Shown in pieces: positions 2,489-57,886 of a DNA stretch of 64,000 nt; within the stretch, counting starts at the first letter, position 1; each line of letters opens with the position of its first letter. The DNA is from Ginglymostoma cirratum. Its lineage: Eukaryota. Below the pieces are notes generated by a model. The model was given only the letters and a program-made list of their open reading frames with translations. It searched no databases and was not told the origin of the DNA. The stretch is from NCBI GenBank assembly GCA_024137785.1, contig JAHRHZ010000111.1, forward strand, positions 27,226,991 through 27,290,990, written 5' to 3'. A program made the translations under genes and the position numbers.

Positions 2489-3049
2489 TCAGAGATAAAA
2501 GGTACTGCAGATGCTGGAGAATCCGAGATAACAATCATGGGGCTGGATGAACACAGCAGGTCAAGCAGCATCATAGGAGCAGGAAAACTTGACGTTTCGG
2601 GCCGAAACCCTTCATCAGAAANNNNNNNNNNNNNNNNNNNNNNNNNNNNNNNNNNNNNNNNNNNNNNNNNNNNNNNNNNNNNNNNNNNNNNNNNNNNNNN
2701 NNNNNNNNNNNNNNNNNNNNNNNNNNNNNNNNNNNNNNNNNNNNNNNNNNNNNNNNNNNNNNNNNNNNNNNNNNNNNNNNNNNNNNNNNNNNNNNNNNNN
2801 NNNNNNNNNNNNNNNNNNNNNNNNNNNNNNNNNNNNNNNNNNNNNNNNNNNNNNNNNNNNNNNNNNNNNNNNNNNNNNNNNNNNNNNNNNNNNNNNNNNN
2901 NNNNNNNNNNNNNNNNNNNNNNNNNNNNNNNNNNNNNNNNNNNNNNNNNNNNNNNNNNNNNNNNNNNNNNNNNNNNNNNNNNNNNNNNNNNNNNNNNNNN
3001 NNNNNNNNNNNNNNNNNNNNNTTCCTGCTCCTATGATGCTGCTTGACCT
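2489..3049. mobile_element. Fold-back Penelope insertion (family A) with a 400-N assembly gap inside
   Basis: Inverted pLTR arms on both sides of the gap (2622-3021); TSD gctggaagaacagta 2474-2488 / 3050-3064. Confidence 0.85.
2588..2621 (-). ncRNA. Minimal type I hammerhead ribozyme in Penelope pLTR
   Basis: Minus strand ttt-CTGATGA-a-GGGT-ttcg-GCCC-GAAA-cGTC-aag: complete core, stem II, palindromic ACGT stem III. Confidence 0.75.
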
Positions 3050-4694
3050 GCTGGAAGAACAGTACCTCATTTTTCCACTTGGGGACCCTGCAGCTTTCTG
3101 GGCTCAATATGAGTCAAACAATTTTAGGGCCTGAGCACCCTCTCCCATGTCCTTACCCCAAATCCTACACATGAGACCTTGTCATCACATGACTGCAGCC
3201 CAAAACAACCCATTGTCAGCCCTATTAGCATATATTTTCCCAGGCTGACCTTTAACCATTCCTTTGTCTGCCCAACTGTTTTATTTCTTTCTCTGGGTTT
3301 CATTTCCACCTATTGTTTACTCCTCCTCCTTGCCCACCCCATCTTTAACATATATACCAACCATTTCCTAGCTACAATTAGTTCTGAAGAAGGGTCACTG
3401 GACCCAAAATGTTAACTCCTTTTTTTTCTCCGCAGATGCTATCAGATCTGCTGAGACTTTTCAGCAATTTTTGCTTTTGTTTCTGACTTCCAGAATCCTT
3501 ATTTCTTTGTTTTCTTTTGCTCTCTGAGTTAGTTGTGGTGTACAACTTCTCTGTTATGAGGACCCAGGCATTGTCACCAGGTATCTGGGGGTAACTTGTG
3601 GGATGGAGAGGAGCTGGAAGAGGAGGCAGTGAGTTGGTAGTGTGGTTGCTTAGGTCAAACATTACTGGCAATATGATATGGTCTGAGCGTTCCCCAAATG
3701 TTAGCCCTTCTTATATATACCATGAAGACTGGGTTCTTGTTGAGACAGATCTTTTGAAGTGCAACAACACTAGCTATTACATTGTGATAAGATCTTGGAC
3801 TTACCCATAGTCTGGGTTCTGTGTTTACTGATGTTATGGTTGCATTACATGACTGTAATGTCACACATAGCTGACTGACTGACTACACACCTCTGAAGGT
3901 GTGGCCTTTACAACAGAATGAAACATGTGAGATCATCTGACTGTCTTGAAGGTACATTGCCTTTGTTTGCAACAATACAAGAGGTTATATTTACTCCAGT
4001 GAGCAATCCATCAGCACCGATAAGGGTCTAGTTCCCTCTAACCATCATCTCCTCACCATCATGGTCCCACTATTCCAGACATTGCGATCTGCTGACATGT
4101 CAAATCACAGGACATTTTGGCCAAATACTCCAATAAAAACCACAAACAGAAACATCTTCACCATAACTTTACCCAACAGCACAACTGAGTATACACATAA
4201 AATTAAATTGATCACCCTTGTAGAAAGGCAAAGTATTCAAGATGCTGTATATCTGAACCATTGATTCCTTTACTTGTCAAAAATTGGTCTATCTCAGCTT
4301 TGAATATACTGATGACTCAATCTCAACAGCCCTCTGCAACAAGGAATTTGAGAGAGAAGAAATTCCTCCTCATCTCTGTCTTGAAAGTGTGACTGTTATT
4401 CCAAGATTATGCCATCGGCTCCTCGACTCTCCCACAAGGGGAAAGAACTTTTCTGCACCTACCCTGTCAAATCCCCTAAGAAATTTATAAGTTTCAATAT
4501 GGTTGCCTCTCATTCGTCTGTATTCCAAAGGTACAGGTCCAACCTAGTCAACCTCTCCTCTAAGACAATTTCTCCATACCAGGCAAATACCAGGTATATC
4601 TGGCAAATAAACCTTCTCTGGACTGCCTCCATGGCTGTATATCATTCCTTAGGTAAGTGGACCAAAAATGTGCACAATATTCCAGCTGTGGTCT

Positions 4695-4776
4695 TGAAGG
4701 CCCGAAACGTCAGATTTCCTGCTCCTCTGATGCTGCTTGGCCTGCTGTGTTCATCCAGCTCCACACCTTGTCATCT
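4695..4776 (+). mobile_element. Very short family A pLTR insertion beginning inside the hammerhead
   Basis: aggcccgaaacgtcag...caccttgtcatct; TSD ctgtggtct 4686-4694 / 4777-4785. Confidence 0.75.
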
Positions 4777-4944
4777 CTGTGGTCTGACTACTGCTTTGCA
4801 TAGTTTTAGCAAAGCTTCCCACTTTTATTTTCCATTCCCTTTGAAATAAAGGCCAACATTCCATTTGCTTTCCATATTACCCATTGAACTTGGATACTAA
4901 CTTTTAGTTCAAGGACAAAGACTTCCAAATCCCTGTGTTCCTTA

Positions 4945-5138
4945 ATAAAAACTAAAAGAACTGCAGACGCTGTAAATCAGGAACAAAAACAAAAAGTTGC
5001 TGGAGAAGCTCAGCAGGTCTGGCAGCATCTGTGAAGGAAAAAACGGAGTTAACGTTTCGGGTCCGGTGACCCTTCCTCAGAACATGTCACCGGACCCGAA
5101 ACGTTAACTCTGTTTTTTCCTTCACAGATGCTGCCAGG
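4945..5138. mobile_element. Fold-back Penelope pLTR insertion (family B)
   Basis: Near-perfect inverted repeat centred at about 5083; TSD ccctgtgttcctta 4931-4944 / 5139-5152. Confidence 0.85.
5047..5083 (-). ncRNA. Minimal type I hammerhead ribozyme (family B)
   Basis: Minus strand gtt-CTGAGGA-a-GGGTC-accg-GACCC-GAAA-cGTT-aac: core, perfect 5-bp stem II, stem I gtt/aac. Confidence 0.75.
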
Positions 5139-6724
5139 CCCTGTGTTCCTTAGCTTTCCCCATTTAAATAATATTCAGCTCCTCTATTCTTCCTGCCAAA
5201 GTACATAACCTCACATTTCCCCACATTATATTCCATCTGTCAAGTTTTTGCTTATTCACTGAATCTATTTCCCTCTGCAGACTCATTGTGTCATCCTCAC
5301 CACTTGTCATCCATTCACAAACTTGGCTATCATACATTTACTTCCCTCATCCAAGTCAGTAACACATATTGTCAACTATTGTAGTCCCAGCACTGACCCC
5401 TGTGGCACACCATTACTTACAGGTTGCCATCCTGAAAATGCCCCCTTGCTGCTTCATTCATCCTAACTCTCTGTCTTCTTTAGATAGTCAATTCTCTGTT
5501 GATGCTAATATACGAACTCCAAAACTATGGCTGTTATCTTATTAAGTAGCTTAATGTGCGGTACCTTAACAATCTTCCTTTGAAAATCCTAATATATTAT
5601 ATCCACAGCTTCCCTTTTATCTATTATGCTTCTTACCTCCTCAAAGAATTCTGGTAAATATGTCAGATATGATTTCTCCTCATGGCGTGATGCTGACTCT
5701 GCTAGTCATATTATACATTCCTAAATGCTCTACTTTTACATCCTATGTAACATGCTCTAACATTTTCCCAATTACAGACATTAAGTTAACTGGACTAAGT
5801 TACATTTTTTTGCCTCCTTTCCTTTTTGAATAAAAGTGTTACGTAGTTTTCCAATCCCTGGGGACTTTCCCAGAATTGAAGTATTCTTGGAAGATTATGC
5901 TATCAGTGCATTCAGCACTGCTATAGCTACTTCCTTCAATATCCTCGGATGCATCCCATCAGGTCCAGGGAAACAAGTTTGGAATGCTCTCAGTGTCCTT
6001 TACTCTGAAGGCTGATGCAAATTATTTATTCAGTTTGTCTGCTATTTTGTGGTTCTCCATTATTATTTCCCAGCCTCATTCCATAATGGGCTTATGTTCA
6101 CTTTGGCTTCTCTCATTCTTTTTTTATCTGCCTGTAGAAGCTCTTACTGTCTATTTTGGTATTACACGCAAATATGTGTCCTCAATATTATTTTTTCTCT
6201 TTATTATTCTTTTGATCATCTTTTGTTGTCATTTCAAGTGGCAGTACTTTTCTGTCAGTGGTGCAGTGTTGCTCTCACCCTTCTCCCTGTGGCTCACCAT
6301 ACAGTGGGTCTGGGATATCTTAAAGCAGAAAATTAGAAAGAAAGGCTTAGGATGAGGCAGTGTGGCCAGCAAGTAGGATGTCCACAGTCAGATCACCCGG
6401 AACTTGCACTTGATGCCTGATAAATAGGGTGATGGTGGGATGGGAATTGAGTAAAGGCATAAAGTAGGAGCATACCACCATCCTGAATCATCCCATCAAT
6501 GGCAGGTACAACTGGCTCTTAGCACAGTCAGACTTATGTTACGGAGAATCATCTTCTTCCTAGGGCTGAGGAGATTTGGCTCTGCTCGCTGTGATTGTGT
6601 GTGAGTGAAGAATGGAAATGTTTGTTTTGTGATGTTTTTGGTGATATCATACCCTTACTGAATAAGCTGGCAGAGCATGGAGGCAGTGAGGCTGATATAA
6701 TTGGAAGAAGTGTCAGAACTGGAA

Positions 6725-6880
6725 GAACTGGAATGCTATGTACCAAAAGTTTCAAGAACAGCTTCTGCCCTGCTGTTATCAAAGTTCTGAATGGATATCT
6801 CAAATTTTAAATTTAAATATTGATCTCACTCTTTGTGCGCCTTCGCTGTAGCTGTAACATTGTATTCTTCACTCTAATCG
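6725..6880 (+). mobile_element. Rex1/Babar-like LINE 3' end fragment
   Basis: accaaaagtttcaagaacagcttctgccctgctgttatc encodes TKSFKNSFCPAVI, resembling the Rex1 C-terminal RFKNSFFP motif. Confidence 0.55.
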
Positions 6881-6899
6881 TCTGAATATTCAACCTGAA

Positions 6900-7530
6900 T
6901 CCTCATTGCTGCAGATGAATGAATGATGGGAGTGTGTTGCATTGAGCAGTGTGAATTTGGTGGTTCAGTAACTATGAGATGTCATGTGAAGAAAATAATT
7001 CACTGTTGTCATGACTGAGTGACACTTTTGACCATCCTGTGGCAATGCGTCATGGCCCAGCTCTGGTTTTGACCTTGCTGGTCACCTTCCCCCATTTCCT
7101 CTGAAGGGATTCCTTAAAGGCCAACTGGCCTCCATAAAAAGTTAGCCATTCTCCTCTTGTTAGTCTCCTTCATTAAAGTCTCCTGTGATGCTTTTGTCAA
7201 ACTGACAGCCTCTCTCTTCCTTGATATTCTTTTAGTTCAGCTTCAACTTTGGACCCGATGTGTATGACCAGCAATTAACATCAATCTGTTTCTAATGGAC
7301 ACAGCTCCACTTTAAGGGGAGGCAAACTGCCTTTAAGAGCTGCCGGCTACCTGGAGCATGTGCCTGTTGTGTAGTTGTTAAGCCTTCTGTTGAGTATGCA
7401 GCCCATCAATAGTGCAGAAATACTAGGCTGAATGTTGCAATCATTTCCATGAGGAGCAGTGCAAATTTCACATGCCGCCTAGCTCAATGAAACCAGGCAT
7501 CGGCAGATCACAAATTGTGACCACAATGCT
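6900..7530 (-). mobile_element. Possible PIF/Harbinger remnant (Myb/SANT-like ORF start)
   Basis: Minus-strand translation near 7150-7220 weakly resembles the N-terminus of Harbinger Myb-like proteins; highly decayed. Confidence 0.3.
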
Positions 7531-10244
7531 CAGAAATAAGAGTGAACCAATTTTCTGCTCTGATTCTCCAGATAAGTAAAATCTTTAATTCCAGAGATGG
7601 ATAGCTTCATTATAGAGGAGAGCCACAGAACAAAATGTCCTGTAAGTAAAAGAGCATAGTGATTTAAATGCTGATGGAAAAGATAGTAAAATTATAATCT
7701 TACAGCTAGCTATAATCAATTAACCTACTGTGCCAAAAGCAGGAAAGCTTACTGGGCTTTAAGAACTGTTAAGCTTGCTCCTTAATAAAGAAATGAGCTG
7801 CCTCTGAGGATTTTACTAACATTGCTGGACCAGATTTTTCAAGTTACAAAAGTCTGTCAGTGCACAGTGTGTTGAATTGCTAACATTCTAGGAGATGTAC
7901 CAGTTTTATGATCAGAATGTTTTATCGTGCAAAACTAGAGAAGCAGGTGGCAATTAAGTAAATTTTTGCAGCGGAGACTTAGCTGAAAATTTCAACAAAA
8001 ATCTGTCCCTATAAAATAATTTCTTGCCTGAATACACTGATGTCAGGTATCATTACTGACTGCTGTCATGGTCAAAAAAAAAGCTTCATGACATTTATCT
8101 CTGTGGCAACATGGCTTAAGGTCTGGATTTTGGAAGCAGTGACCAAACCGCAGAAGAAATGTGGGTTTACTTGATCGATGAATATTCAGGATCAGAAACC
8201 TTTTATTAGTCAACTCCTGCTCAGTGCAACTCATCATTAATTGATAAGAGAGCAAGGAAAAAATTATTTGCCAAAAGGTTAACTAGATTGCTGTGAAGTC
8301 TCTTGGATAATTTTATTTGTGAAATGTGTTTAGGTAAACCATGCGCAAAATATCATCAGTGGAAACGTTGGCCCTCAGAAAAAAGAAACAAGAAATCATT
8401 TAGAATTATTACTGAGGGAGAGACGTTTAATAGGTAAATGCTTGTTACAAATTCAGTTTGAGTACCGACTGTGATGGCAGTTAGTGAACTTTGACCTTTC
8501 CTGCAGACTGGGTTGATGGGATTAGCTGAAGCTGGCTCTAGCCCAAAAAGCTGAGACATGACATAAGCTCCAGGGAGATAACATACTTTTTAATTACTGT
8601 GCCAAGCCTCTGTCGATGTTTTGTTTTTAAAATGTATTCCAAAAATGGATCACTGAGTTATTTGACACAAGGGGGCAACAACAAGATAGCATAATTATAT
8701 GTGAAGAGTCTAAAAATAAAATGCAAGGTGTAAAATATTTGAATCTCAGATGCTAGCTGCCATTTGTATTTCATTTTGCTGCAGTGACAGCACTGTCTGA
8801 ATGACCCAGAGTGCAGTTAAATCCAGAAAAATACGTATCTAATTTGCTTAGGAGTGCCATCCTTACATCACAGTGCTTTTGTAATGGAATGAGTGGGTTG
8901 CAATACATAGGATTTTATATCTCAATAAAGTATCTCCTTGTTTACATTAGGCAATGTCATCAGAATCAAAAGTTAGGTTTCATTCCTCATTTCTGTCTAA
9001 TTTAAAATCCTTTTCCTCAAAATGTTGTCTCATTCCTCACATTGTCTTCATTATCCGTTTAGGCATTCCGTTCTCTAATCCCTTTTGCTTTGTTTGTATC
9101 TCCAGCATTGAATGTGATAGCCAGTCTGTTGGCCCCATCAACTAATTACGTGGAAATCAAGTACACTCAATCAGTTTTGGAGAACAGCAACTCATGGGCT
9201 GCTGAGTTTACAAAATGCAAAATAGTAGCTTTGGCTTGGTACCATGAAAGCTACTCGGCTTCTTGTTAGGAATTTATTAAAAATGACACTTAAAGGCTCT
9301 ATGTGTAACAGATTGATGACAGTGGAATCACAATACTATCAATTGCAACTGGCAAAGTATCAAATAAAGCAAGACTAAAACCCTAAATATCTATAAATGT
9401 TTTGATCTGCTGAGTAATTCAGGTAGGACGATGGTAGAACCCCCAAAATAAATAACACAGATTGCTGAAGACAGTTGCTAATGCTGTTTCTCCGGAGGCA
9501 GTGGTGCTTGCCCATTGAAGTCATGATGACATAACTTTGGATAACATTTAGGACTCACCTCTTTAATGTCTTCAGTAATGCTCTAGCATTTCCATGGTCG
9601 AATGAGGAAAAAAGAGAGATAGATTTGGCTTTTTTATTTGTTTAATTTCTTTCCCTCTTCTTTCCCAATTTCATTCTTTTCTTGCCTTAATAATGGTGGG
9701 TTCCATCCCAAAGGTTCTAGGAGCTCTGCAACATCTTTCCTAAGTGTTAAATCTTTGTGTGCAAGCTGAATTACCTTTCCTCACTTTTGCCAGGATCATT
9801 TTCAAAAATACATAGTTCTGGTGAGGTAAGATTTTCATCCCTAACCCCCTGACTCCTGCAGAGTCCTCCAAAATTCAAGTTAGTTACTTGACTTGGATGG
9901 AGAATGGGGATATTTGCAACACATGGTGGATTTTCAATGAGATTCTCACTACTAAGAGGAAAACCAACGAATGTGAAGGCCAAAAACCTCTGCAACTGCA
10001 ACAGAAAATCTACAAGGACTTTTCCAGTCAAAAAATGCTTGAGACTTCTTTCAAAAGATGGAAATTAAACTCCTTCAAAACCTTTCCTTCCTAAGACTTC
10101 TATATCTGCTATTGCCACCTTTTATATATGCTATTAAGTGGGGCAGACCACTATCTACTAATCAAGAGAATGGAGTCCATCTGATTTCAAACCAGCTCAG
10201 ACCATCCACACTAACCTGTCTGAGATCAACTGACTAAAATTGGA

Positions 10245-12724: not shown

Positions 12725-15708
12725 AATTCATTCATGGAATGTGGGTGACATTGGCTGGGCCAGCATTTATTGCCTGTCCCTAATGCCCTTTACAGTGTGG
12801 TACTCAGCTGCCTTCTTGAACTGCTGCAGTCCATGTGCTGTAGGTAGGCCCTAAATGCCATTAGTCAGGGAATTCCAGGATTTTGGCCCAGCAACGGTGA
12901 ATACATTTCCAAATGAGGATGGTGAGTGGCTTGGAGGAAAACTTCAAGATGGTGGTGTTCATGTGTATCTGCTGGCCTTGTCCTTCCTGATGAAATGTTT
13001 GTGGGTTTGGAAGGTGCTATCCCAGGATCTTCAGCAAATTACTGCACTCCGTCTTGTAGATAGCATATACTGCTGCTACCGAGCACTGGTGGTAGAGGGA
13101 GTGGATGTTTATGGATGTGATGCCAATCAAGCAGGCTGCTTTGTCCTGGAAGGTGTCAAGCTTCTTGAGTGTTGCTGGAGCTGCACTCATCCAGGCAAGT
13201 GGAGAGTATTCCATTACATTCCCAACATGTGTTTTGTATGTGGTGGACAGGCTTTGAGTAGTCAGGAGGTGACTTATTCTCTGCAGTATTCCTTGCCTCT
13301 GACCTGCTCTTGTAGCCACTATATTTAGTGGGCGATTCAGTGATGGTAACACCATTGAATGTCAAAGGGCTATGGTTAGATTGCCTCTTACTGGAGATGG
13401 CCTTTGCCTGGCATTTGTGACGTGCGAATATTACTGCCACTTGTCAGCCCAAGTCTGGATATAGTCTAAATCATGATGCATTTGAACATGGACTGCTTCA
13501 GTATATGAGGAGTCATGAATGGTGCTGAACATTGTACAGTCATTGGTGAACATCCCCACTTCTGACCTTATGACGGAGGGAAGATAATTAATGAAGCCGC
13601 TGGAGATGGTTGGGCTAAGATACTACCCTGATGAACTCCTCCAGAGATATCCTGTGGCTGAAATGACTGACCTCCAACTACCGCAACCATCTTCCTATGT
13701 GCCAGGTATGACCTCCAACCAATACACAGACTTTTCCCCCTGATACCCATTGATTGCAGTTTCTCTAGGGCTCCTTGATGCCACACTTGGTTCAATGTGG
13801 CCTTGATGTCAAAGGCTGTCACTGTCACCTCACCTCTGGAATTCACTTCTTTTGTCCATGTTTGAACTAAGGCTGTAATGAGGTCAGGAGCTGAGTAGAC
13901 CTGGTGGAACCCAAACTAGACATTACCAAGCAGATTATGGCTGAGCAGATGCTGCTTGATAGCACTGTTGATGATGACGCCTTCTATCACTGATGATAAT
14001 TGAGAGTAGACTGATGGGCAATAGTTAGCCAGGTTAGATTTTTCCTGCTTTTAGTGTACAGGACATACTTGGGCAATTTTCCACATTGTCTGATAGATGC
14101 CAGTGTTGTAACTGTACCGAAAGAGCTTGGCTAGGGAAACATCAAGTTCTGGAGCACTAGTCTTCAGTACCAATGCCAGAGTGTTTCAGGGGTCATAGCC
14201 TTTTCAGTATTCAGTGCATCTAATCGTTTCTTAATATCACATTGAGTGAATTGAGTTGGTTGAAAACTGGCATCTGTGATGCTGGAGACTACTAGAGGAG
14301 GTCAAGAAAGATCATCCAATTGGCATTTCTGGCTGAAGATTGCAGAAAATGCTTCAACCTTACCTTTTGCACTGATGTGCTGGGCTTTCCCATCATTGGG
14401 GATGGGTATTTTATGGAGGCTCCCCCTCCAGTGAGTTGATTAACCATCTACTAACATCCATAACAGTATGTGGCAAGACTACAGAGCTTAGATCTAATCC
14501 ATTGGTTGTGGGATCATTTAGCTCTGAATATCACTTATTGTTTATGCTGTTTGGCATACAAGTAGGCCTGTTTGGTAGCTTCATCTGGCTGACACCTCAT
14601 TTTCTAGGCTTGCCTGGTGCTGTTCCTGGCATGCTCTCCTGCACACTCCATTGAACCAAGCTTGAACCCCTGGCATGATGGTAACGGTTGATTGGGGAGA
14701 TGCCAGGCCATGATGTTGCAGATTGTGCTGGAGTACAATTATGCTGCTGTTTATGGCCAACAGCACATCATGGATTGCCATCTGCTGCAGACCCTTTCTA
14801 GCAGCTACGTCCTTTAGGACCCAACTAGCTCAATATGTTGTATTGCTGCTGAGCCATTCTTGGTGGTGGACATTGAAATCCCCCACCCAGAGTAAATTTT
14901 GTGCCCTTGCCACCCTCAGTTTACCCTCTAAGTGTTGTTCAACATGGAGGAGTACTGATTAATCAGCTGAGAGAAGATGGTATATGGTGATCAGCAGCAC
15001 ATTTCTTTGTCCATGTTTGACCTGATGCCACAAAACATAAAGGTCTGGAGTCAATGTTGCAGACTCCCTGAGCAACTCTCTACTGTCTGTATACCACCGT
15101 GCCACCAACTTAACTGGGTCTGTCATGCCAGTGGGACAGATCATGTTCAGGGATGGTGATGGTGGTGGTCTCAGACATTGTTTGTAAGGTATGATTTCAT
15201 AAGTACGACTATGTCAGGCTTGACTAGGATGTGAAACAGTTCTCTCAATTTTGGCACTAGCCCCCAAATGCTGGTGAGGAGGATTTTGAAGTGTCAATGG
15301 AACTGTTTCCGCCATTTTTTCTAATGTCTAGATGCCAGGTGTTGCGGCTGGTTTTCTTTCTTTGTTGCTACTTTGTAGCAATTGATACAACTGAGTGCCT
15401 TGCCAGGCCATTTCAGAAGGCAGTTAAAAAGTCAACCACATTGTTGTGGGTGCTGGAGTCACATCTAGGCCAGACCAGAAGAGGATGACAGATTTCCTTA
15501 ACTAAAGGATATTAGTGAAACAGAGGGTTTCTCCCCCCACAATCAAATGTAGTTTCATAGACATCAGTAGATTTTTAATTCCAGGTATTTTGTTGACTTC
15601 AAATTCCACCATCTGCCATGCCTGGATTTGAACCTGGGTCCCTAGAATATTTGTTAAATTTCTGGATTAATAGTCTGGTGATAATGCCACTAGGTCATTT
15701 CCGCCCCC
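12725..15708 (-). mobile_element. Near full-length degraded CR1/L2-group LINE with a tRNA-derived 5' head, APE and RT
   Basis: ORF-track peptides AFDIKATLNQVWHQGALEKLQSMGIRG, GVHQGSIL, VMEYSPLAWM; APE N-terminus near 15280; A/B boxes at 15624-15700; 3' tail (atga)n. Confidence 0.8.
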
Positions 15709-17004: not shown

Positions 17005-17126
17005 AGATAGTAGGAACTGGCGATGCTGGAGTCTGAGATAACAAGGTGGATGAACACAGCAGGCCAGGCAGCATCAGAGGAGCAGGAAAGCTGACGTTTT
17101 GGGTCTGGACCCTTCTTCAGAAAATG
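17005..17126 (-). mobile_element. Short family A pLTR insertion whose 5' end is at the hammerhead
   Basis: TSD ttcttgatg 16996-17004 / 17127-17135. Confidence 0.75.
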
Positions 17127-17240: not shown

Positions 17241-17378
17241 GAGATAAAAGGTACTGCAGATGCTGGAGAATCCGAGACAACAAGCGTGGGGCTGGATGAA
17301 CACAGCAGGTCAAGCAGCATCATAGGAGCAGGAAAACTTTGTCAAGTTTCCCTGCCCCTATGATGCTGCTTGACCTGC
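17241..17378. mobile_element. Fold-back family A insertion inverted at the hammerhead cleavage site
   Basis: TSD tggatatcagatta 17227-17240 / 17379-17392; junction ggaaaactt-t-gtcaagtttcc. Confidence 0.85.
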
Positions 17379-17962
17379 TGGATATCAGATTAATTCCTCA
17401 CCCAAAGATGATACTCTGACAATACAGCTCTGTACTACAGTCAAATATCAAGCTTTTAAATGGGACCTAAACATCTTTATCGCTCAGAGGCAAGAAAGGG
17501 TCTGGAAGAGGCTGACACCTAACAGAGGTTGCAAGCATGCACAAAATTCCTCTCCCAACTACCAAATGATAGGTTTGACTTTCCCGGATAATGTTTACCA
17601 TCCTCTGGTTTATTGGCGATCTGGTAACCTCAGATTATAGGCTCCTCAGTCAATGCTTCTAATCTATAATGATGATATGTTAGAATAATTTTCTGAATCT
17701 GGCAATAGAGCCATGTTTACTGGCAGTTTAAATTACAAACTTTTGCATGTGGCGCATAATAATCCAAGCACTTAAATGAATGGCTGGAAAACCATATACG
17801 TAAAGTTTACATCTCTGAACTCTCTGAACTCATTACGAACATATTTCTATGAACATATTGTCACTTTCACCACCTATGCCTACTTATCCCACAACTCACT
17901 GTAATCCCTTCAATTTACTTTCTGACTCTGCAGCCCCAAAATGTTCTAGTCAATATACCCGG

Positions 17963-18678: not shown

Positions 18679-18815
18679 GAGATAACAAGCATGGGGCTGG
18701 ATGAGCACAGCAGGTCAAGCAGCATCATAGGAGCAGGAAAACTTGACGTTTTGGGCCTAGACCCTTCATCAGAAAAAAAAAAAAAATTTTTCTGATGAAA
18801 GGTCTAGGCCCGAAA
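18679..18815. mobile_element. Family A pLTR fold-back with back-to-back hammerhead cores joined by an A/T run
   Basis: gggcctagacccttcatcag-(a)n-ttttt-ctgatgaaaggtctaggcccgaaa. Confidence 0.7.
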
Positions 18816-18989
18816 AAAAACAGTTTAACTAGAAATAAACAATTAGAAACTGTCAACATATAACTCTATCAGTCAAAACTAACCCACTTGTAAAAGTCCT
18901 CCCATACACACACATGAGGGGAGGCAGAGATAGACACAAAAAACAGAGTGTTATGGGTGGAGAGAAAGGCAGGAAGGCAGTTCAGTAGT

Positions 18990-19127
18990 TCTGAAGAAGG
19001 GTCACCCGACACAAAACACTAACTCTGTTTTATTCTTCACAGATACTGCCAGACCTGCTGACCTTTTCCGGCAACTTCTGTTTTTGTTCCTGATTTACAG
19101 CATCCACAGTTCTTTCGGTTTTTATTT
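18990..19127 (+). mobile_element. Short family B pLTR insertion starting at the hammerhead
   Basis: TSD aggcagttcagtagt 18975-18989 / aggcagttcaatagt 19128-19142. Confidence 0.8.
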
Positions 19128-23299: not shown

Positions 23300-23475
23300 T
23301 ACCATTGCATAAATGCTGCCCTCTCCACACTTCACATCAGCTCTGATGAAGAATCATCTAGACTCGAACCATTAGCTTGCCTTCTCCTCATGGATGCTGC
23401 CTGACCCTTGATTTCCAGCATTTCTTTTTGTTTTCAGTACAGATTCCAGCATCTGCAATAATTTGCTCTTTCGTC
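23300..23475 (+). mobile_element. Old Penelope pLTR fragment with a degenerate hammerhead
   Basis: agct-CTGATGA-agaatcatctagactc-GAAC-cattagct; tail ttccagcatctgca. Confidence 0.6.
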
Positions 23476-23829
23476 AACCCTGTGTTCCAGACTGGGGCTA
23501 TCGAGCTCTGTTTATCCTATGTTTCTTTCCTTTTTCCAGCCTTTATATCCATTGTCTTGTCTGTCTTTGCATATCTGACTGCTTGTTCAGGGAGAATTTA
23601 AAAGTCATAAGTTAGCAATTTCTATTTCCTAGTTGCCCTTGGTTAAAGACTTTTTTTTTCATAATTAACAGTTACTTTCTTGTTATGCATAGAAACATGG
23701 CAAGTGTTTTCTTTCAATCTAAGTTCATCAGTCAGGAAGATTGGGAACATTAGATAGCTCAACTAAATCTTTTCACATCTACCCAGAGAATCATAATTGT
23801 GAAGCTAGCAGATGTTGTGTGATTTAAAA

Positions 23830-33340: not shown

Positions 33341-33608
33341 GTTGGTGTTAGTTTATAACTATACTTAACCAGCTTGGCCAAGGATACCGTTAGTTCAACA
33401 GCAGAAGTCTTTGGTACATTTTCCGGAAAGTTTTGAATAAATCCTACTGTCTGTGAACTTAAAGGTGAATATTATTGCTGAACAACTTAAGGCGCACACT
33501 GTCCTCAATCTTCTAAGTGCATTGACTTAACAACTTTACTAAAGATTGCTGTTCATTTTGATGGCTTCTCCCAGTTGGATCCTGATTTCTGCTCCCTTTA
33601 TAAATCAT

Positions 33609-36475: not shown

Positions 36476-36624
36476 TTTTTCCACTTTTTCCCAGAAAGAA
36501 AATGAGCTGCCAAAGTTGAATGCTTATAAATTTACTTCAACAATACGTTTTTCAGTGTCAGCTCTGAAGGAGAATCACGTTAGACTTGAAATGTCAATTG
36601 TTCCTCACATAAAAAGAAATAAAT

Positions 36625-39589: not shown

Positions 39590-39745
39590 TCATAGAATCC
39601 TACAATGAGGAAAGAGGCCAACTGGCCCATTGAGTATCACCAACTGTCTGATGAGCATCCCACCCAGACCTAGTGCCTGACCCCATCCCTGTAACCCTGC
39701 ATTTACCATTGCTAATCCACCAGACCTGCACATCTTTGGACTGAG
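39590..39745 (-). mobile_element. HE1-like SINE 3' fragment
   Basis: Reverse complement of 58530-58690. Confidence 0.65.
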
Positions 39746-39769
39746 GATTTTTTTTAAGATTCCAGTCCA

Positions 39770-40285
39770 CAGTATCAAATAGTTCAAATGACCCAAAGTA
39801 TAGCCCTTCCCCATTCCACCACTGTGGCAGCTGTTGCAAACTTCAGTGAATCCCTCAACACATCGTCCTGAGCCTTGGAATGTGGCAGTCTGCAACACTC
39901 AGTCATGGCCAACACTTTGCCCTTGGAGGCCAGCACATTTCAGACAGACCATAGAACATCTTTCACCAAATTGTAGGTCTTACAGCCACTGTTGATGCTT
40001 TTCTTGGTGTGCAGCTCTGGAAATAGCCCAGACAGCACCGATCACCAATCCACTTGGATGAACTATGGCAAAAGTCACTGCATCTGTTCCCAGTCATTCT
40101 TTACAAGGGCACACTTCAGAAGGAGATGGATCTTGTCTCCTGTACAGGCAGCCTAAATGCAACATTCACAGACAGTGGGAACTGTGGGAATGTACAAAGG
40201 ATCTGACGGGCAGGAACCTTCTCACGACCAGCCAAACTACATCTTGGCGCTTGTTTGAAAAGTCAGAGGAGTTGACAAAAAAAAC
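39770..40285 (-). mobile_element. L1/Tx1-clade LINE ORF2 C-terminal remnant
   Basis: Minus strand SDFSNKRQDVVWLVVRRFLPVRSFVH and HLLLKC (zf-RVT-like region). Confidence 0.6.
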
Positions 40286-42373
40286 TTATTCCTTTAGGTT
40301 ACCTGCATATTTTGCCCTCAATCACTATCCGCCAGAAAAATGTTGAAAGAATTGCTCCACGTGGTAGGCACAATCAAACAAATTAGTGACTTCTGCTTTG
40401 CAATTTTTGCATATGAGCTAAAACATGTTCCCGGTGAGCCCCCCAGTTATTAATTACGTTGGCCTGAATTTTCTAAGAGTAGCAATCACTGCCAGATCAC
40501 TGCTATTGTACCTCATTTCTTACCCAGCATTCATTTCCCTACATGGAGACCTAATTTGAACCTAATTTCTGATACTGGAGAGCTCAAAAATATCCAGTGT
40601 GTGCTTAGTCCAGCTAAATCCTTATTGTGTAGGAGATGTGGCTGTAGGTAAGCCACATCTTTTATTAAGAGCAGTGACTGCAGTATACTAGCAAGCTCAT
40701 TTATTTACTAACACATCGGACAGCTGTTCGATATTGAAACAGCATGTTAGGCAAGTGGGTAAGGGAATGAAGTAAGAGGGCAGGGTGGGTAGCACGGCAG
40801 GATGGGTAAAGTGGCAAAAGACAGGGTAGGTTGGGTGGCAGGTTGTGAGCATTGGTGAGTAAGTGGGGACTGTTCAAATTGTGTTGGAGGGAGGCAGGTT
40901 GGGTGGGTTCTGGAAAAGCAGGGGATTCCAGAGCCAATGGGTCAGGTTTATAGTTACACAGGATTTACAGTAAGTTCTGATCCTCTTAACTTTTCCTTGC
41001 TAAATATTTAGTTAAGTCAGTCAGAACCATCCAAAGTCTCTGACCTGAAGTCAGACACCGAATAATTTTCAATCAGAGGTTTAAACCACAGGAATTTCCT
41101 GTGTCATCCATGTATGAGGACTTCTGAGGTGACTATGTCCTGACGCATATCATTTAAGATATATCTAGTCTCTGACTTTCTGGAGGGCAGAAGATTTAGT
41201 CTGTTATGAAGTTATCTTTTAGGTCCTTTGGACCCCATGTGTTTAAGATGATTTATACCTTTGACTCAAAATTCTGGAGCTTCATTGAATGTAGTCCCGA
41301 CATCCCTCAATGTGGCTGATAAACTAAGCGACCAACAGATTGATTCTTTCCACATGATTCCAATGCATTTTGCATCAAGGGATGTATATTCACATAACAA
41401 TTAATTCTTACTTCTTGATGAATAATATATCTATATAAGAGAGAGGGTGTCTCAGGTTAAGCAGAGAAAGCAAAAAAAAAATGTGATCCTCCCCAACAGA
41501 GTTGAAATCAGGACTTGGAATAGCCCAGCTCTATCTGCCAACATCTTGTCTCCTATTGGATTTCATTCGGTCGATCCAAGTCAGGTTGAATGTAGAGTGC
41601 AAGAATGCATGGAAATATACACAGGAACATCCAAATAACAGGAAGAAATTATGTCAAGTTTTTAGACACAAAGAAAGAACTCACTCCAGTAGCAGTGCTT
41701 ATTTGGAACAATGACTCAAGTGAACCTCATGACCATTCATTGAAAGCAACAACAAAGATTGTGGGCCTCTGGTAATCTGGAGTCTGAAATCTCTTAAGTA
41801 CTCATAGCTTATCTGGTTTACATAAACTTCATCAATAAATAATTATTCTGCTGCAAAAAATATGGAGCCAGGATGCCTGAGGCTGCCATTTGTAAAGACA
41901 ATTTTAACATTGTCAACTTATGTCTGAAACTGCTGATGGAGGTCATGGCATTCACTTATGGAAAAAAAATGAAACAGTGGGTCTGTGTTAGATGCTGAGG
42001 AGGAGTTGTGTCCATCCGACAGCATATTATTGTGCTGTATGACATTATTGGCAAGCAGGTCACTGCGTTCAGATGAAATTAGTTTTGTGTAGGATTTTAG
42101 GAAGATTGTATTTAAACAGGTAAATGCCATTATTAATGTAACAGAAAAAAACTCTTGCAAATGCACAAATGCTTTTGTTGTTAATATTGTCTGCAATTCA
42201 CTTAACTAAATATACCAGCTTGTTTAGTTTTCACTTGAATAAACTGTTGAGTACTCACCACGTCAGCTGTTTGCTCAATGTCACTTTCAGTCATACTATC
42301 ACGAATATAATCGACCAACAGACCACCTCAGCCTCCAACTGTATTCGCTGAATGAAGAGTTTTTTAAAATAGT

Positions 42374-45313
42374 CAGAAGTCACACGACACCAGGTTATAG
42401 TCTAACAGGTTTATTTGAAATCACAAGCTTTTGGAACAAAGCCCCTTTGTCAGGTGAAGTGAGAGAGAAGCGCACAGAACACAGAATTTATGGGCAGAGA
42501 GATCAAGGGCAGAGAGATCAAAAGGTCGTACAAATGGTGAGTGGAGTGTAGAAATCCATCATTAACTTGTCTGACTGTACACTTCAACCAGATGAAATTG
42601 AAGTTCTCAGCCGAGGGCTCGATTTCTGCCCCACTACCAAAATGGACCCCATTGGCCTGGGGCCGGACACAGAGGAATTCATCAAGTGAATGAGGTTCCG
42701 GGAATTCTTCCACAAACCCCAAGATATCAACAGCGAGCCCGATAAGACAACCAATGAATCAGAACAGTCGACAGAGAGATCCATGGTGCAGTGACCAAAG
42801 AAGAAGGAGTAGAGTTGGACGCTTCGGGAAGGCCGGTGCCCCAGGCTCAACAAGTATGCTGAAACCATCAGGAGATGCGTTCATGCCAGATTCATCAGCT
42901 GCGCTCACAAGGTAGTGCAGAGCGTCACCCAAGGACAATGCAACGCCATCCATGCTCTCAAGACCAATCGCAACATTGTCATCAAACCAGCTGACAAAAG
43001 AGGAGCCATTGTCATGCAGAATAGAACAGACTACTGCAAGGAAGTGTACTGACAGCTGAACAACCAGGAACACTACAGACAACTACCTGTCGATCTGACC
43101 AAAGAGCGCACCCGTCAACTCAACAGACTGATCAAGACCTTTGATCCAGACGTTCACAGTACCCTAAGCACTCTCATCCTGCATGCTTCTCGTGTGCGGG
43201 ACTTCTACTGCCTTCCAAACATACACAAAGCCAACACACCTAGACATGCCATCGTATCAGGTAATGGGACCCTGTGTGGGAACCTCTCTGATTATGTCAA
43301 GGGCATTTTGAAACCCATTGTACAAGGAACCCCCAGCTTTTTCGTGACACCACAGATTTCTTACAGAAACCCAACACCCATGGACCAGTTGAACCAGGAA
43401 CATTCCTCGTCACAATGGATTGTTTGGCCTTCTACACCAGCATACCCCATGACAACAGCATTGCTGCAACAGCCTCAGTACTCAATACCAACAACTGCCA
43501 ATTTCAAGACACCATCCGACACCTCCTCCGCTTCATCCTCAACCACAACATCTTCACCTTCAACAACCAGTTCTTCATCCAGACACACAACCGCCATGGG
43601 GACCAAATTTGCACCCCAATATGCCAACATTTTTATGAACAAGTTCGAGCAAGACTTCTTTACTGCACAGAATTTCCAACCAATGCTTTACACCAGAAAC
43701 ATTGACATTTAATTCCTTCGGACTCATGGCAAGGAATCACTGAAACAACGACATAGTAATATCAACAAGTTTCTTCCTACCATTAGACTTACCATGGACT
43801 ACTCTTCAGAATCAGTCTTGTTCTTGGACACACGCACCTCCATCCAGGACGGGCACCTCCATACCTCACTCTACCGCAAGCCCATGGATAAACTCATGAT
43901 GCTGCACTTCTCTAGCTTCCAGCCTAAACATATTAAAGACGTCATCCCCTACGGACAAGCCCTGCACATCCACAGGATCTGCTCAGATAAGGAGGAGCAC
44001 GACGGGCACCTAGAGATTTTGAAGGTTGCCCTCATAAGAACAGGATATGATGCTCAACTCATCGATCGCCAGTTCTGACATGCCACAGTGAAAAACAGCA
44101 ATGACCTCCTCAGAAGACAGACTCAGGACACGCCGACAGAGTACCCTTTATCACCCAGTACTTCCATGGAAAGGAGAGACTATGCCATGTTCTTTGCAGC
44201 CTTCAATATGTCATCGTTGATGACAAGCATCTCGCCCTGATCACCCCTTCGCCTCCATTTCTCCCCAACAAGCAACTGCCAAACTTTAAACGGACTATCA
44301 TTCGCAGCTAACTACCCAGTCTTCAGGACAAAATCGATCACAACAGGACACAACCCTGCCATGGCAATCTCTACAAGACATGACAGACCATCGACATGGA
44401 TACTACCATCACACGTGGGAACATCATCCACCACGTGATTACCTACACGGCAGATAATCATGTGATTCGGCCAATGTCGTCTATCTCATACGCTACAGCA
44501 TGGTAAATTGGTGAGACCATGCAGATGCTATGACAATGGATGAATGGACACCACACAACAATCGTCAGACAGCAATGTTCTCTCCCAGTCAGGGAACACT
44601 TTAGCGGTCAAGTCATTCAGCCTCTGATCTTCGAGTATGCGTCCACCAAGGTGGCCTTCAAGACACACACACAACAACACAGAATCGCCGAGCAGAAACT
44701 GATAGCCAAGTTCCATACCCATCAAGACGGCCTCAACCATGATCTTGGGTTCATGTCACATTGCATGTGACCCCACCACATTGTTCTACATCTGCAAAAT
44801 CTTCCTTATTCTCTTGTTGTGACACCATCACCTGGATAAATTGTTGTGATCTCTCTACCTTAATTAGTTTGTACAGTTTTGGATCACTTGTTACTTTGGT
44901 TAGACTCTCAGCATACGTCTCTTATACTTATCATGTTATTCCAGTTGTTTGGTTTGTCTCCAGCTCCACCTTATTTTTAATATTTTGTAATTATCTCTCT
45001 GCCTCATTTAATCAGATTGTAAATCATCCCTTCACTTGTTATTCAGCTGTTGACACTTTACTCACATTGTCTAACTTTTCTGATCACTTGCAGAGACTTA
45101 TTATTCGACAATCCACACACACCATTCGTATAATCTTTTGATCTCTCTGCCCATAAATTCTGTGTCTGTGTGCTTCTCTCTAACTTCACCTGACCAAGTG
45201 GCTATGCTCCGAAAGCTTGTGATTTCAAATAAACCTGTTGGGCTATAATCTGGTGTTGTGTAACTTCTGACTTTATCCATCCCAGTCCAACACTGGCACC
45301 TCTGCATCATTTC
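42374..45313 (+). mobile_element. Near full-length degraded Penelope-like retroelement (family C) with inverted 5' pLTR
   Basis: IKPADK, FYCLPNIHK, AMGTKFAPQYANIFM, YTRNIDI, LYRKP and GIY-YIG remnants; 42374-42540 is the inverse of 45120-45272; TSD ttaaaatagt 42364-42373 / 45314-45323. Confidence 0.9.
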
Positions 45314-45486
45314 TTAAAATAGTGAGAATAGAATTAAGATAGTGAAAGGACCAGGCAGAAATGAGGTTTTCTTTTAATGCAGTGCCTCGTTAGGATTTGA
45401 AATGCATTGCCCAAAAAAATGGGTTAGATGGAGGCAGATTCCAAATGAAATTGGAAATGCTTGACAAGGAAACATTTGAAGGGCTA

Positions 45487-49300: not shown

Positions 49301-49868
49301 AGATAACAAGGTGTACAGCTGGATGAACACAGCAGGCCAAGCAGCATCAGAAGAGCNNNNNNNNNNNNNNNNNNNNNNNNNNNNNNNNNNNNNNNNNNNN
49401 NNNNNNNNNNNNNNNNNNNNNNNNNNNNNNNNNNNNNNNNNNNNNNNNNNNNNNNNNNNNNNNNNNNNNNNNNNNNNNNNNNNNNNNNNNNNNNNNNNNN
49501 NNNNNNNNNNNNNNNNNNNNNNNNNNNNNNNNNNNNNNNNNNNNNNNNNNNNNNNNNNNNNNNNNNNNNNNNNNNNNNNNNNNNNNNNNNNNNNNNNNNN
49601 NNNNNNNNNNNNNNNNNNNNNNNNNNNNNNNNNNNNNNNNNNNNNNNNNNNNNNNNNNNNNNNNNNNNNNNNNNNNNNNNNNNNNNNNNNNNNNNNNNNN
49701 NNNNNNNNNNNNNNNNNNNNNNNNNNNNNNNNNNNNNNNNNNNNNNNNNNNNNNNNGCCGGAAACGTCAGCCTTCCTGCTCTTCTGATGCTGCTTGGCCT
49801 GCTGTGTTCATCCAGCTGTACACCTTGTTATCTCAGGTTCTTCAGCATCTGCAGTTCCTACTATCTCT
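49301..49868. mobile_element. Fold-back family A insertion with a 400-N gap inside
   Basis: Inverted arms around the gap 49357-49756; TSD gtgactattattg 49288-49300 / 49869-49881. Confidence 0.85.
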
Positions 49869-53560: not shown

Positions 53561-53574
53561 TAAGTGTCAACAGC

Positions 53575-54310
53575 TTTCCAATGTGGACCTGATGGACCAG
53601 ACCCCAGCATTCTGAAGGTGATAGCTGAGGAGATTGTAAAGGCGTTGGTGGTGATCTTACAGGAGTCACTGCAGTCAGGAGGGCCCCAGAAGACTGGAAA
53701 ATGGCTCATGTAACCCCCTTGTTTAAGAAGGGAGGCAGGTAGAAGGCAGGAAACCACAGAGTGGTTAGCCTGACCTCAGTCATTGATAAAATTTTAGAGT
53801 CCATTGTAAAGGAAGAGATTGGAAAATGGAAGTGCATGGTAAAATTGGGCTGAGTCAACACATCAAAGCTGCTTTTGACCAAGTCTAGCATCAAGGAGTC
53901 CTAGCAAAACTGGAATCAAGGGGTATCGGGGGCAAACTCTCCACTGGTTGGAATCATACCTGGTGCACAGGAAGATGTTTGTGGTTATTGGAGGTTAGTC
54001 ATCTCAGCCCCAGGACCTCTCTGCAGGAATTCCTCAGGGTAGTTTCCTAGACTCAGCCATTTTCAGCTGCTTCATCAATGACTTGCCCACCATTATAAGG
54101 TCAGAGTGGGATTGTGCAATCATCATGAAACAATGATCAGCACTATTCACAACCCCACGGAGACTGAAGCAGCCCATGTTCAAATGCAACAAGATCTGGA
54201 CAATATCCAGGCTTGGGCTGACAAGTGGCAAGTAACATTTATGTCACATAAATGCCAGGCAATGACCATCTCCAACTAGAGGCAATCTAACCACCACCCC
54301 TTGGCATTTA
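53575..54310 (+). mobile_element. Adjacent fragments of two LINE families (CR1 53575-53870; CR1/L2-group 53870-54310)
   Basis: First part resembles 36640-36910; second is the reverse complement of 13360-13800. Confidence 0.7.
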
Positions 54311-55639
54311 ATTTTGTGTCTCGGAGACTGTTTGTAGCAAAGGCTGAGGAGTGAAATTCTTCATGCCATAGCATTTTAGGACATTGCTGTGTGGAGTGAA
54401 TAGCCACTGAATTATAAAGGCAGCTCCCCATTATAAACATGGACAATGGAAAGCTAACACAAAAAAATTAAGAATCTACAACAATAGAAAGAAATGCTTT
54501 ATAGGCAAGAATGTATTGTTAATATTTTTCCATATGATTAAAAAAATTAGAGTCACACAACACAGAAACAGACCATTTGGCCCACCGTGCATATGCCAAC
54601 CAACGAATACCAAATTTCACTAATCCTACTTACTTGCATTTGATCCATAGTCTATGCACTAGCATTTTAAGCGCTCATCCACAGTGTGGAGTTGGATCAC
54701 ATGGAGAAATTTTACCTATGCAGCTTTGGCTCTTAAATATAATGTTGTAACACATGGCAGACTTTGTGGCATCCTTTATATGTCACTGGATTTGATTTTA
54801 CAGCAGATAGCACAAATAAGATAGAAAAGCAATTGTAAATCTGCCAAATTATCGAGTTGCAAAGCTAAGCTCGGGCAATTCTATGAACCAGCACTCACAG
54901 TGGGGAACCATGCAGCTCATAATTTGCCATCTGTGATCTCTTAAGATCCTCCTCATGTGACCAATGCTTCCCCATCAGGAATGCTGAATCCCATTTATTT
55001 TGCATCATTGGCCTTGGGTCAACCCATAGGAAGTGACTTCAAAGACTTATTGGGTTGCGTGTCATGCACTTTGCATCTTTGTTCTGCTTCATATTACATC
55101 TTAAAAAAAAGCTTTCATGCAGAAGTGCAGATTTTTTGTACTACAGGGAAGTGCATACTCTGGGTTTCCTGGTTTATAGTCACAGTGGATTTGCTTCCGG
55201 AGGGTGTTCCAGGATATTACAGTTGTTTCCTGTCATGTTAAAGTAATGATTCTGAAAGGGTTAATGATTCTAAAGATTGAATTATGTTCATCAAAACTGA
55301 TGACTCTTAAGGTCTGGGTGGACAAGAGATAGAATGTTTTAGGATCTTGTACAATGAAAACTTATCACTCAATTGTCTTCCGATGATCTTAGTAACAATA
55401 TCTAATGTATTTGTACCTGGTTGCAATTATGCAATCCATTATATTTATTTAAGACAAAATTCACTGATGGATTTCCTGTACGACTATAAGGCAAAGCCTT
55501 CTGTCACCACAAGTAGGTAGTTGTTGACATCAAAGAACATGCAATGTCTCACTTCAAAACTCATAATTAGTTCAACAGCATCTATTTATACAGCTAAAAA
55601 TTGTTAAATAAAAGTCAAGAAGACCAAGGAAATCAATAA

Positions 55640-57886
55640 CACCAACAAGAACAAAGTTGCTGGAAAAGCTCAGCAGGTCTGGCAGCATCTGTGAAGGAAA
55701 AAACAGAGTTAACGTTTCGGGTCCGGTGACCCTTCCTCAGAACTGATGGTGGCTGGGAAAATGGCAGTTTATCTGAGGAAAAGGTAAGGGGGATGGGGTA
55801 GTGAGTAAATGATAGGATAGAGCCTAAAAAGAGACAAGAGCAGTTGAACAGACAAACAGTTGATAATTTTATTTTTCTGAAGAAAGGTCTAGGCCCGAAA
55901 CGTCAGCTTTCCTGCTCCTCTGATGCTGCTTGGCCTGCTGTGTTCATCCAGCTCTACAACTTGTTATCTAAGAGTTGATAATGATCAGGCTGGGAGGGTG
56001 AATAGCTGTTAATAGGGACTGTTAGTGACTAACAACGGTGGGTGTGTAATGGCAGGCTATGGGGTAACAAGGCCTGGTGTGTGGGGTGGGGGCCTGGGAC
56101 ATGGGAGAGCTTAGGCCCTAAAATTACTGAACTCGATATTGATTCTTTTTACACATCCATTCCTCACCAGGAGGGTCTTAGGGCTCTCCTCTTTTTCCTG
56201 GAGCAAAGTCCTGAACCGTCCCTACCCACCACCACCCCCCTCCACTTGGTCGACCTCGTCCTCACCATCAACAACTTCTCTTTTAACTCCTCAAAATTTT
56301 CTTCAGGTAAGAGGGGAGACCATGGGTACCCACATGGGCCCTAGTTATGCCTGTTTCATCATGGGGTACATGGAACATTCCTTGTTCCAGTCCTATTCCG
56401 GCCCCCACCCACAGCTCTTTCTCCAATATAGCGATGATATCATTGGTGTTGCTTCCCTCTCTCATCTGGAATTGGAAAACTTCATCAATTTCACCTCCAA
56501 TTTCCACCTCGCTCTCACTTTCACCTGGTCTATCTCTGACTCCTCCCTTCCCTTCTTCGACATTTCTGTTTCCATTTCTGGGGGTAATCTGGCCACTAAT
56601 ATCCGCTGCAAACCCACTGTCTCCCACAGCTACCTGGCCTATACACCCTCACACCCCACTTCTTGTAAAGACTCCACACTATTCTCTCATTTCCTCCGTC
56701 TCCGTCGTATATTTCAGATGAGGCCATCTTCAACAAGGGAGCCTCTGAAATGTCCACCTTCTTCCTCAACCGAGAATTCCCCAGCATCAATGTCAACAGG
56801 GCCCTCAATTAGGTCCAACCCATCTCCTGCACTTCCGGCCTCACCCCTTCTCTTCCCTCCCGCAACAACAATAGGGTTCCCCTTATCCTTACCCACCATC
56901 CCAACAGGGTCCATATCCAGAAGTCCATCAGACATCACTTCTGCCACTTCCAGCAAGATGCCACCACTAGACACATATTTCCATCCCCTCCCTTGCCCAC
57001 CTTCCACAGAGACCGTTCCCTCTGGGACACCCTGGTCCACACTTCCTTCACCCCCAACACATCCCCACAGCCCTACGGCACCTTTCCCTGTAACCGGCGA
57101 AGGTGCAACACCTGCCCATTTACCTCCTCCCTCCCCAGTATCCAAGGGTCCAAACATACCTTCCAGGTGAAGCAACACTTCACCTGCACTTCCCAGAATC
57201 TAGTCTACTGCATTCGCTGCTCAGAATGTGGTCTCCGCTACATTGAGGAAATGAAACATAGGCTGGGTGACCACTTTGCAGAACATCTACGTTCTGCTCA
57301 CAAAAAAGACCCTGAACTGCCTGTTGCCTGTCACTTTAACGCACCACCCTGCTCCCTGGCCAACATCTCTGTCTCTGGCTTGCTGCAGTGTTCCAGCAAA
57401 GCCCAACACAAGCTGGAGGAACGACACCTCATTTTCCACTTGGGGACCCTACAGCCCTCCGGACTCAATATTAAGTTCAATAATTTTAGGGCCTAAACTC
57501 TCCCTTGTCCCAGCCCCCTACCTCACACACCAGGCCTTGTTATCACATAGCCTGCCATTGCACACTAACTGTTGTTCGTCACTGACAGTCTCCATTAACA
57601 ACTACTCACCTTTCCAGCCTGATCGTTATCAACTCTTTGTCTGTCCAACCGTTCTTCTCTCTCTTTGGGCTCTATCCTATTGTTTTTTCCTTACCCCATC
57701 CCCCTCCCTTTTGTCTGCATATAAACTGACGTTTTCCCAGCCACCATCAGTTCTGAGGAAGGGTCACCGGATCTAGAACGTTAACTTTGTTTTCTCCTTC
57801 ACAGATGCTGCCAGATCTGCTGAGCTTTTCCAGCAACTTTGATTTTGTTCCTGATTTACAGCATCTGCAGTTCTTTCGGTTTTTAT
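55640..57886 (+). mobile_element. Penelope-like retroelement (family B), 5'-truncated with an inverted 3' copy
   Basis: RT motifs GETMGTHMGPSYA and LQYSDDII; GIY-YIG NLVYCIRCSECGLRYIEE..RLGDHFAEH; 55640-56130 is the inverse of 57480-57850; TSD caaggaaatcaataa 55625-55639 / 57887-57901; intact hammerhead on the minus strand at 55707-55745. Confidence 0.9.
55868..55972 (+). mobile_element. Short family A pLTR nested in the family B arm
   Basis: TSD agttgataat 55858-55867 / 55973-55982; begins just upstream of CTGAAGA. Confidence 0.8.

Follow-up and report, generated by a model that had tools for sequence, protein, structure and literature searches.

The stretch of DNA analysed here (the window) comprises 64,000 nt of Ginglymostoma cirratum contig JAHRHZ010000111.1 (assembly GCA_024137785.1, positions 27,226,991 to 27,290,990). 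It contains repeats with minimal hammerhead ribozyme (HHR) motifs, which appear to belong to the pseudo-long terminal repeats (pLTRs) carried by Penelope-like elements (PLEs). A first-pass annotation had proposed such motifs on both strands and had suggested a search with models or descriptors. A strict descriptor for intact minimal hammerheads matched six cores in the window, compared to none in the 100 order-2 Markov simulations from which the chance level was taken. Named by the position of CTGA and the strand, these are 2618−, 5080−, 24708+, 33735−, 34859+ and 55740−; two of the six have G10.1·U11.1, arising from CpG decay. A looser descriptor matched eight cores (simulation mean 0.24), and a count by eye gave 19 whole or near-whole cores, the six intact ones included. 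The Rfam scan returned no hammerhead match at gathering score in the window and none up to E 10 in 33600–35000, which is expected because the cores have no stem III hairpin.

The seven motifs cited in that annotation all read as quoted at the positions given. Four of them (34859+ with stem II at 34867, 2618−, 5080− and 55740−) have all core positions, stem II, the ACGT palindrome and UH. The other three cores are broken. In 17120−, G12 has become A (...GACCC AAAA). The core at 23343+ reads GAAC CA TT (A15.1 to C), its palindrome is decayed, and its stem II (23351) has an A·C mismatch. At 45190+, which reads CTGACCA, G8 is gone together with most of stem II; the stem I TCAC/GTGA cited for this decayed family C form (45186) is present. 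A further core, 57753+, is likewise broken. The features of the window carrying cores or related pLTR sequence, which fall into five sequence families (A to E), are as follows.

1770–1963, both strands: short family A fold-back with decayed palindrome; arms 1776–1857 (minus) and 1856–1963 (plus).
2490–2621, minus: family A1 pLTR end and tail with intact core (CTGA 2618, UUCG loop); the junction is within an N run and the partner arm is at 3022–3053 (plus).
3050–3513, plus: older family B-like PLE 3′ end with decayed core at 3384; an endonuclease remnant starts from 2277 and a family A insertion interrupts it.
4948–5137, both strands: short family B fold-back; arm 4948–5083 (minus; intact core 5080, begins at stem I) and partial inverted arm 5086–5137 (plus).
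17012–17123, minus: short family A3 copy, beginning at stem I, with broken core (G12 to A) and a 9-bp target-site duplication.
17242–17380, both strands: short family A fold-back without a core; both arms start from the cleavage site (0 and −3).
18679–18815, both strands: short family A fold-back, both cores broken; A/T run at the seam.
18987–19122, plus: short family B copy, beginning at stem I, with decayed core and a 10-bp target-site duplication.
23325–23480, plus: family D pLTR end with broken core (A15.1 to C, palindrome decayed) and stem I AGCT/AGCT.
24113–24811, both strands: family A1 fold-back; arm 24113–24284 (minus, palindrome decayed) and arm 24285–24811 (plus, core 24708, G·U at 10.1–11.1).
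33606–34942, both strands: family A1 PLE 3′ end and inverted arm; minus: core 33735, tail and GIY-YIG remnant 34008–34574; plus: tail-less arm 34481–34942 with intact core 34859.
42371–42506, minus: family C pLTR end with decayed core.
45138–45330, plus: family C pLTR end in which the TCAC/GTGA stem I and the AGCT palindrome survive; G8 and stem II are gone.
55644–56145, minus: inverted 5′ arm of a family B element with intact core 55740; a short family A2 insertion at 55874–55969 (plus, 10-bp target-site duplication) splits the arm.
56115–57883, plus: 5′-truncated family B PLE with the C-terminal part of the reverse transcriptase (RT), a CxxxxCxxC linker, frameshifted GIY-YIG, pLTR with broken core 57753, and tail.
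63108–63155, minus: decayed core of the fifth family (E), beyond the range of the first-pass annotation (2588–57786).

Immediately 5′ of the core-bearing repeats are frames for RT and GIY-YIG endonuclease (EN), as seen at 56115–57883 for family B and in the same design at 33606–34942 for family A. The two endonucleases are 55% identical over 132 residues, and the sequence at 55644–56145 is an inverted copy of the 3′ end of the family B element. A CX2-5CXXC linker is present between RT and EN (C-NRRR-C-NT-C in frame P0002), with a similar motif in family A, and the Atlas feature similarity to GIY-YIG clusters was 0.97. The window frames P0001 and P0002 had no Pfam or NCBIfam match, and a PDB search of the window RT and EN frames gave nothing useful. 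At one sampled locus (L193), RVT_1 (E 8e-08) and GIY-YIG (E 0.045) were matched within one frame, in the order pLTR, tail, start of the open reading frame (ORF), RT, endonuclease, pLTR. The region L193:4326–7181 (minus strand) holds a seemingly full-length, frameshifted family B element in which pLTR and tail continue into the ORF; the start codon likely lies ~60 nt past the tail. Judged by sequence, the carriers are EN+ PLEs encoding RT followed by a C-terminal GIY-YIG in one ORF, and the linker motif, rather than an RT tree, would place them with the Neptune type.

These elements are abundant. A first look at the genome (4.36 Gb) gave 146,094 candidates for the endonuclease, and a core-like stretch was present in all 20 loci fetched by endonuclease alone. 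The exact 31-nt core of A1 occurs 51,102 times, compared to 0 for a reversed control (one per 85 kb; the window has one). Direct or inverted pLTR arrangement, a one-sided tail and target-site duplications were all found in these elements. No head-to-tail tandem units each with an HHR were present in the window, so that the copies do not classify as non-LTR retrozymes. As to a host gene, 21 longer frames yielded one RT match only. Four RNA-type contig sets cover repeats in 34600–44600, not the unique DNA beside 34942; such contigs cannot show absence, strand or ends.

Covariation between families was assessed in a sample of 142 records, made up of the window, 200 kb of flanks and 139 stretches elsewhere, of which 29 were all N and 1.33 Mb was readable. 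Family majorities were derived from 51 copies of A1, 43 of B, 15 of C, 3 of D and 14 of E. Because the copies were retrieved with family-specific fuzzy patterns, the letters inside those patterns are partly selected; the clusters for A, B, C and E first came from a core-only search. A MAFFT alignment of 17 natural copies set family C one column off, hence pairs were counted on a positional alignment. In type I order, all five majorities keep CUGANGA, one extra base between positions 9 and 10.1, G10.1-C11.1, GAAA and U16.1-H17. Between families, both strands of stems I and II vary, and 39 of 40 stem cells are paired. This pairing was the best of the 120 permutations of the 3′ strands (derangement mean 19.2, maximum 24). 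The stem III palindrome, without loop 3 (15.1–16.1), is ACGU in A, B and E and AGCU in C; family D retains only CpG-decay products (CA/TG).

On this sequence evidence, the motifs are minimal type I hammerheads with an invariant core and stems that covary across families. The annotation's identification of PLE pLTR hammerheads with a palindromic stem III therefore agrees with all five majorities, as does the conservation of the core between families. Its covariation claim needs narrowing: genuine change on both sides of a stem is limited to comparisons between families A/B and C, D and E, and the GGGT and GGGTC stems that it offered as examples differ by a loop change and one U·G to U-A replacement. 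In family E, stem II has UA as its third pair in six copies, UG in five, CG in two and AA in one. Family E combines this covariation with a 6-bp stem II and U as the extra base (window 63108–63155 minus; L074, L094, L134, L137 and L169).

The core could also have been conserved for a reason other than cleavage, such as a promoter or protein-binding signal overlapping the motif. Consistent with this, subfamilies A2 and A3, which make up 56 of 110 sorted family A cores, have spread with a weak stem I of two pairs and a mismatch, and few copies have their 5′ end at the cleavage site (below). In addition, mutating the ribozyme does not stop the Anolis Poseidon element from inserting in vitro, and none of the RNA-seq reads terminate at the site, according to the accessible part of PMC11167929. 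Against this, five families retain every catalytic position together with G10.1-C11.1, UH and three covarying helices, which fits a catalytic fold, and PLE hammerheads have been reported to cut in vitro (PMC4209133, PMC11167929, accessible parts). A function unrelated to cleavage is therefore considered unlikely.

Constraint on the inserted copies was tested in long copies anchored on both sides, with non-CpG and CpG sites counted apart. In family B, non-CpG changes numbered 10/400 in the core and 99/3115 in the flank (P 0.54), and CpG changes 55/240 in the ribozyme and 18/80 in the flank. Intact long copies amounted to 15/40 in B and 31/43 in A. When private changes only were counted, the core was not depleted in A overall (P 0.15), in A2/3 (P 0.45) or in B (P 0.89). 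As the copies decay like their flanks, selection appears to have acted on the source elements, with neutral decay after insertion.

Several observations weigh against this picture of conserved PLE ribozymes with decaying copies. In family A long copies, the core had 3 non-CpG changes where 12.8 were expected (P 0.001), a deficit that selection among many source copies would explain. Private core changes in A1 were 0 against 3.1 expected (P 0.045, borderline and one of four groups), and a slight constraint on inserted A1 copies may exist. Only 3 copies represent family D, and because A, B and D are related to one another, the families count as only partly independent. The clade was assigned by the linker motif and not by a tree.

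The arrangement of the cores was then considered. Close same-family pairs were divergent in 12 of 15 cases, convergent in two and in same-strand tandem in one. For neighbouring exact cores less than 2.5 kb apart, 14 of 16 pairs were divergent by hand count among the first 100 matches listed. An inverted arm lies upstream of each of the six intact cores (for 2618 the seam falls in an N run), and intact cores on the same strand of the window are 2.5–29 kb apart. A head-to-head inverted 5′ copy has been described for PLEs in the accessible parts of PMC8557442 and PMC3846280, and the opposite-strand pairs are the usual PLE 5′ inversions, with the tail on one arm only.

Since the fold-back cores are on opposite strands, one transcript carries one sense core and its antisense copy, and since the pairs are divergent, read-through RNA from either side makes the antisense arm ahead of the core. 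The fold-back at 33606–34942 has arms of 441 nt that are 96% complementary. In the predicted fold of 33600–34960, 34 of 36 ribozyme bases on the plus strand and 36 of 36 on the minus strand were within the long duplex, and the stem II probability was 0.000. The predicted local duplex had −62.8 kcal/mol, compared to −2.3 for stems I and II. In read-through RNA, the antisense arm would come first and the ribozyme would then be buried in a long duplex; masking of the core by the antisense arm, which the annotation had raised, is accordingly what the folding predicts.

The annotation had further suggested that any transcript crossing the locus inherits several cores, which could dimerise in cis; on this reading they would cut the RNA, and the antisense arm would act as a switch. 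Six cores do pass the strict descriptor, the ACGU palindrome common to A and B makes mixed dimers formally possible, and the family is present in the RNA-type contigs. However, the paired cores are on opposite strands and divergent, the antisense would be transcribed first and is favoured by ~60 kcal/mol in the predictions, and the same-strand spacing of the intact cores is wide. The predicted self-duplex of the palindrome reaches only −3.1 to −3.5 kcal/mol, the active dimer was not obtained when two monomers were co-folded at equilibrium, and the published dimer activity is low (PMC4209133, accessible part). Cis-dimerisation at this locus is thus highly improbable, and this part of the annotation was not upheld.

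It is very probable that the cores are located in the terminal repeats of several PLE families and that the opposite-strand pairs are inverted 5′ copies predicted to bury the ribozyme, so the window copies are likely to be inert relics. As a set, the motifs are real and belong to a known kind; they are well conserved from family to family, have mostly decayed here and are probably silent in the fold-backs. Two 400-N runs, at 2622–3021 and 49357–49756, are both central in short family A fold-backs, 22 of 172 family A copies in the sample have N-adjacent arms, and ~460-nt spacings recur among divergent exact-core pairs; such hairpins may therefore be under-assembled.

The motif has already been published together with its covariation and palindrome, and so have cleavage by the dimer and the pairs on opposite strands (PMC4209133). 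The accessible part of that paper describes a minimal motif in PLE repeats with short helix I, an extra base between 9 and 10.1 and G10.1-C11.1, together with a palindromic 15.2–16.2 without loop 3 and weak dimer cleavage. It also reports numerous families within a genome that show compensatory changes, copies that are for the most part single and truncated, opposite-strand pairs 100–700 bp apart, and thousands of copies in coelacanth and Xenopus. The present motifs resemble these in all those structural and copy features. They differ in stem II, which is 4–6 bp here and 7–8 bp in Schistosoma, and in copy number, with 51,102 exact cores of one subfamily compared to 4,000–9,000 in coelacanth and Xenopus; the portion of the main text compared makes no mention of cartilaginous fish. 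As it stands, the set is another vertebrate example of the published PLE minimal hammerheads and of little consequence. For work on the role of PLE hammerheads, the genome supplies five families that covary and a very large number of copies.

The accessible parts of the papers on Neptune-clade EN+ PLEs (Craig et al. 2021, PMC8557442; Arkhipova et al. 2013, PMC3846280) likewise describe RT, a Zn-finger-like linker and C-terminal GIY-YIG, 5′ truncation, a head-to-head inverted 5′ copy, target-site duplications, an HHR in the pLTR and a 30–40 bp tail at one end only, as found here. Animal non-LTR retrozymes, in the portions available of PMC7229834 and bioRxiv 10.64898/2026.07.22.740005, share the type I HHR and PLE origin and are reported in one chondrichthyan. 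They form head-to-tail tandem arrays, whereas no HHR-bearing array is present in the window and close same-strand pairs are rare.

Beyond the published features, one extra was found: the 5′ ends of short copies pile up where stem I begins rather than at the cleavage site. After removal of N-adjacent or edge copies (25 of 172 in family A and one in family B), 5′ ends at −37 to −28 from the cleavage site were seen in 59 of 147 usable copies of family A and in 47 of 92 of family B. The 63 nt upstream contained 12 (A) and 2 (B) ends (binomial P below 1e-37). In both families the pile-up point is the first base of stem I. The 3′ ends clustered at +66/67 and +90 to +102. Target-site duplications of at least 8 bp flanked 25 of 55 (A) and 15 of 56 (B) solo short copies, compared to 3% and 5% in controls.

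Three other origins of the pile-up were rejected. Only 3/147 (A) and 7/92 (B) ends are at −2 to +2, so the 5′ ends are not a record of ribozyme cleavage. Nor is the pile-up an artefact of another upstream body: the upstream flanks, judged by eye (for family B, 20 of 33 shown), share inverted element arms only, and many copies are directly abutted by target-site duplications. D. virilis has its start site further upstream, with an intron that terminates at helix I; a splice junction of this kind was rejected here because no shared first exon is present upstream.

The simplest reading of the pile-up is run-off at the 5′ end of uncut RNA, and its position is likely the RNA start. The sequence at this point (CCATTT, TCAGTT) resembles the initiator consensus. 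The fixed 5′ end and the few ends at the cleavage site hint that uncut RNA is copied in vivo. More tentatively, RNA might start at the first base of stem I, with uncut RNA as the in vivo template; the ribozyme would clip a capped leader of 32–34 nt, and cleavage would switch the RNA off or re-route it. We regard this fuller scheme as possible but doubtful. If such a start is true, the ribozyme is a 5′-terminal device, and run-off copies of the uncut leader are preserved in the genome in their tens of thousands.

The Poseidon element of Anolis carolinensis (Frangieh et al. 2024) offers a parallel in the accessible part of PMC11167929. Its two internal RT starts bounding the tail match the 3′ ends found here (+67, ~+100), its HHR is just 5′ of both RT starts, and uncut RNA is the main template. 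The Poseidon ribozyme is protein-assisted and dispensable for insertion in vitro. Poseidon belongs to another clade and has its start codon inside the HHR, whereas that of the present elements is likely downstream of the tail. A sharp 5′-end hot spot at the first base of the ribozyme is not described for Neptune PLEs in the accessible parts of PMC8557442 and PMC3846280, and the stem I pile-up was not found in the published literature searched, which excluded subscription papers, Repbase records and supplements.

Alternatively, the 100–135 nt copies could be a separate, non-autonomous family resembling short interspersed nuclear elements, with its own initiator, mobilised by the PLE enzyme, and with the hammerhead serving its RNA. 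The fixed 5′ end in both families and the excess of target-site duplications over controls would suit such a family. It is decidedly unlikely, given that short and long copies share subfamily sequences and both 3′ ends, that A and B (called unrelated for this comparison) have this 5′ point in common, and that short peak copies are often fold-back arms (22/56 and 11/46 in a conservative test).

Some individual short copies have unusual ends. The fold-back at 17242–17380, with arms from the cleavage site (0, −3) and an 11–12 bp target-site duplication, is a rare candidate copy of cleaved RNA. T runs, or A/T at the seam, are present directly 5′ of short family A copies beginning TTTCTGA (18775–18790, 55867–55874 and L073), as if RT had stuttered at the template 5′ end. 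Short family A copies are repeatedly inserted in family B pLTR or endonuclease sequence (55867–55969 and 2488–3053 in the window; L182, L191 and L192). Elsewhere in the window, 36893–37420, 12741–13889, 32189–33335 and 53860–54312 contain an RT remnant of the long interspersed nuclear element type (RVT_1 E 8e-15) as well as another family of dispersed repeats, and 60796–61227 is a G-rich minisatellite with 13 copies of a 33-nt unit.

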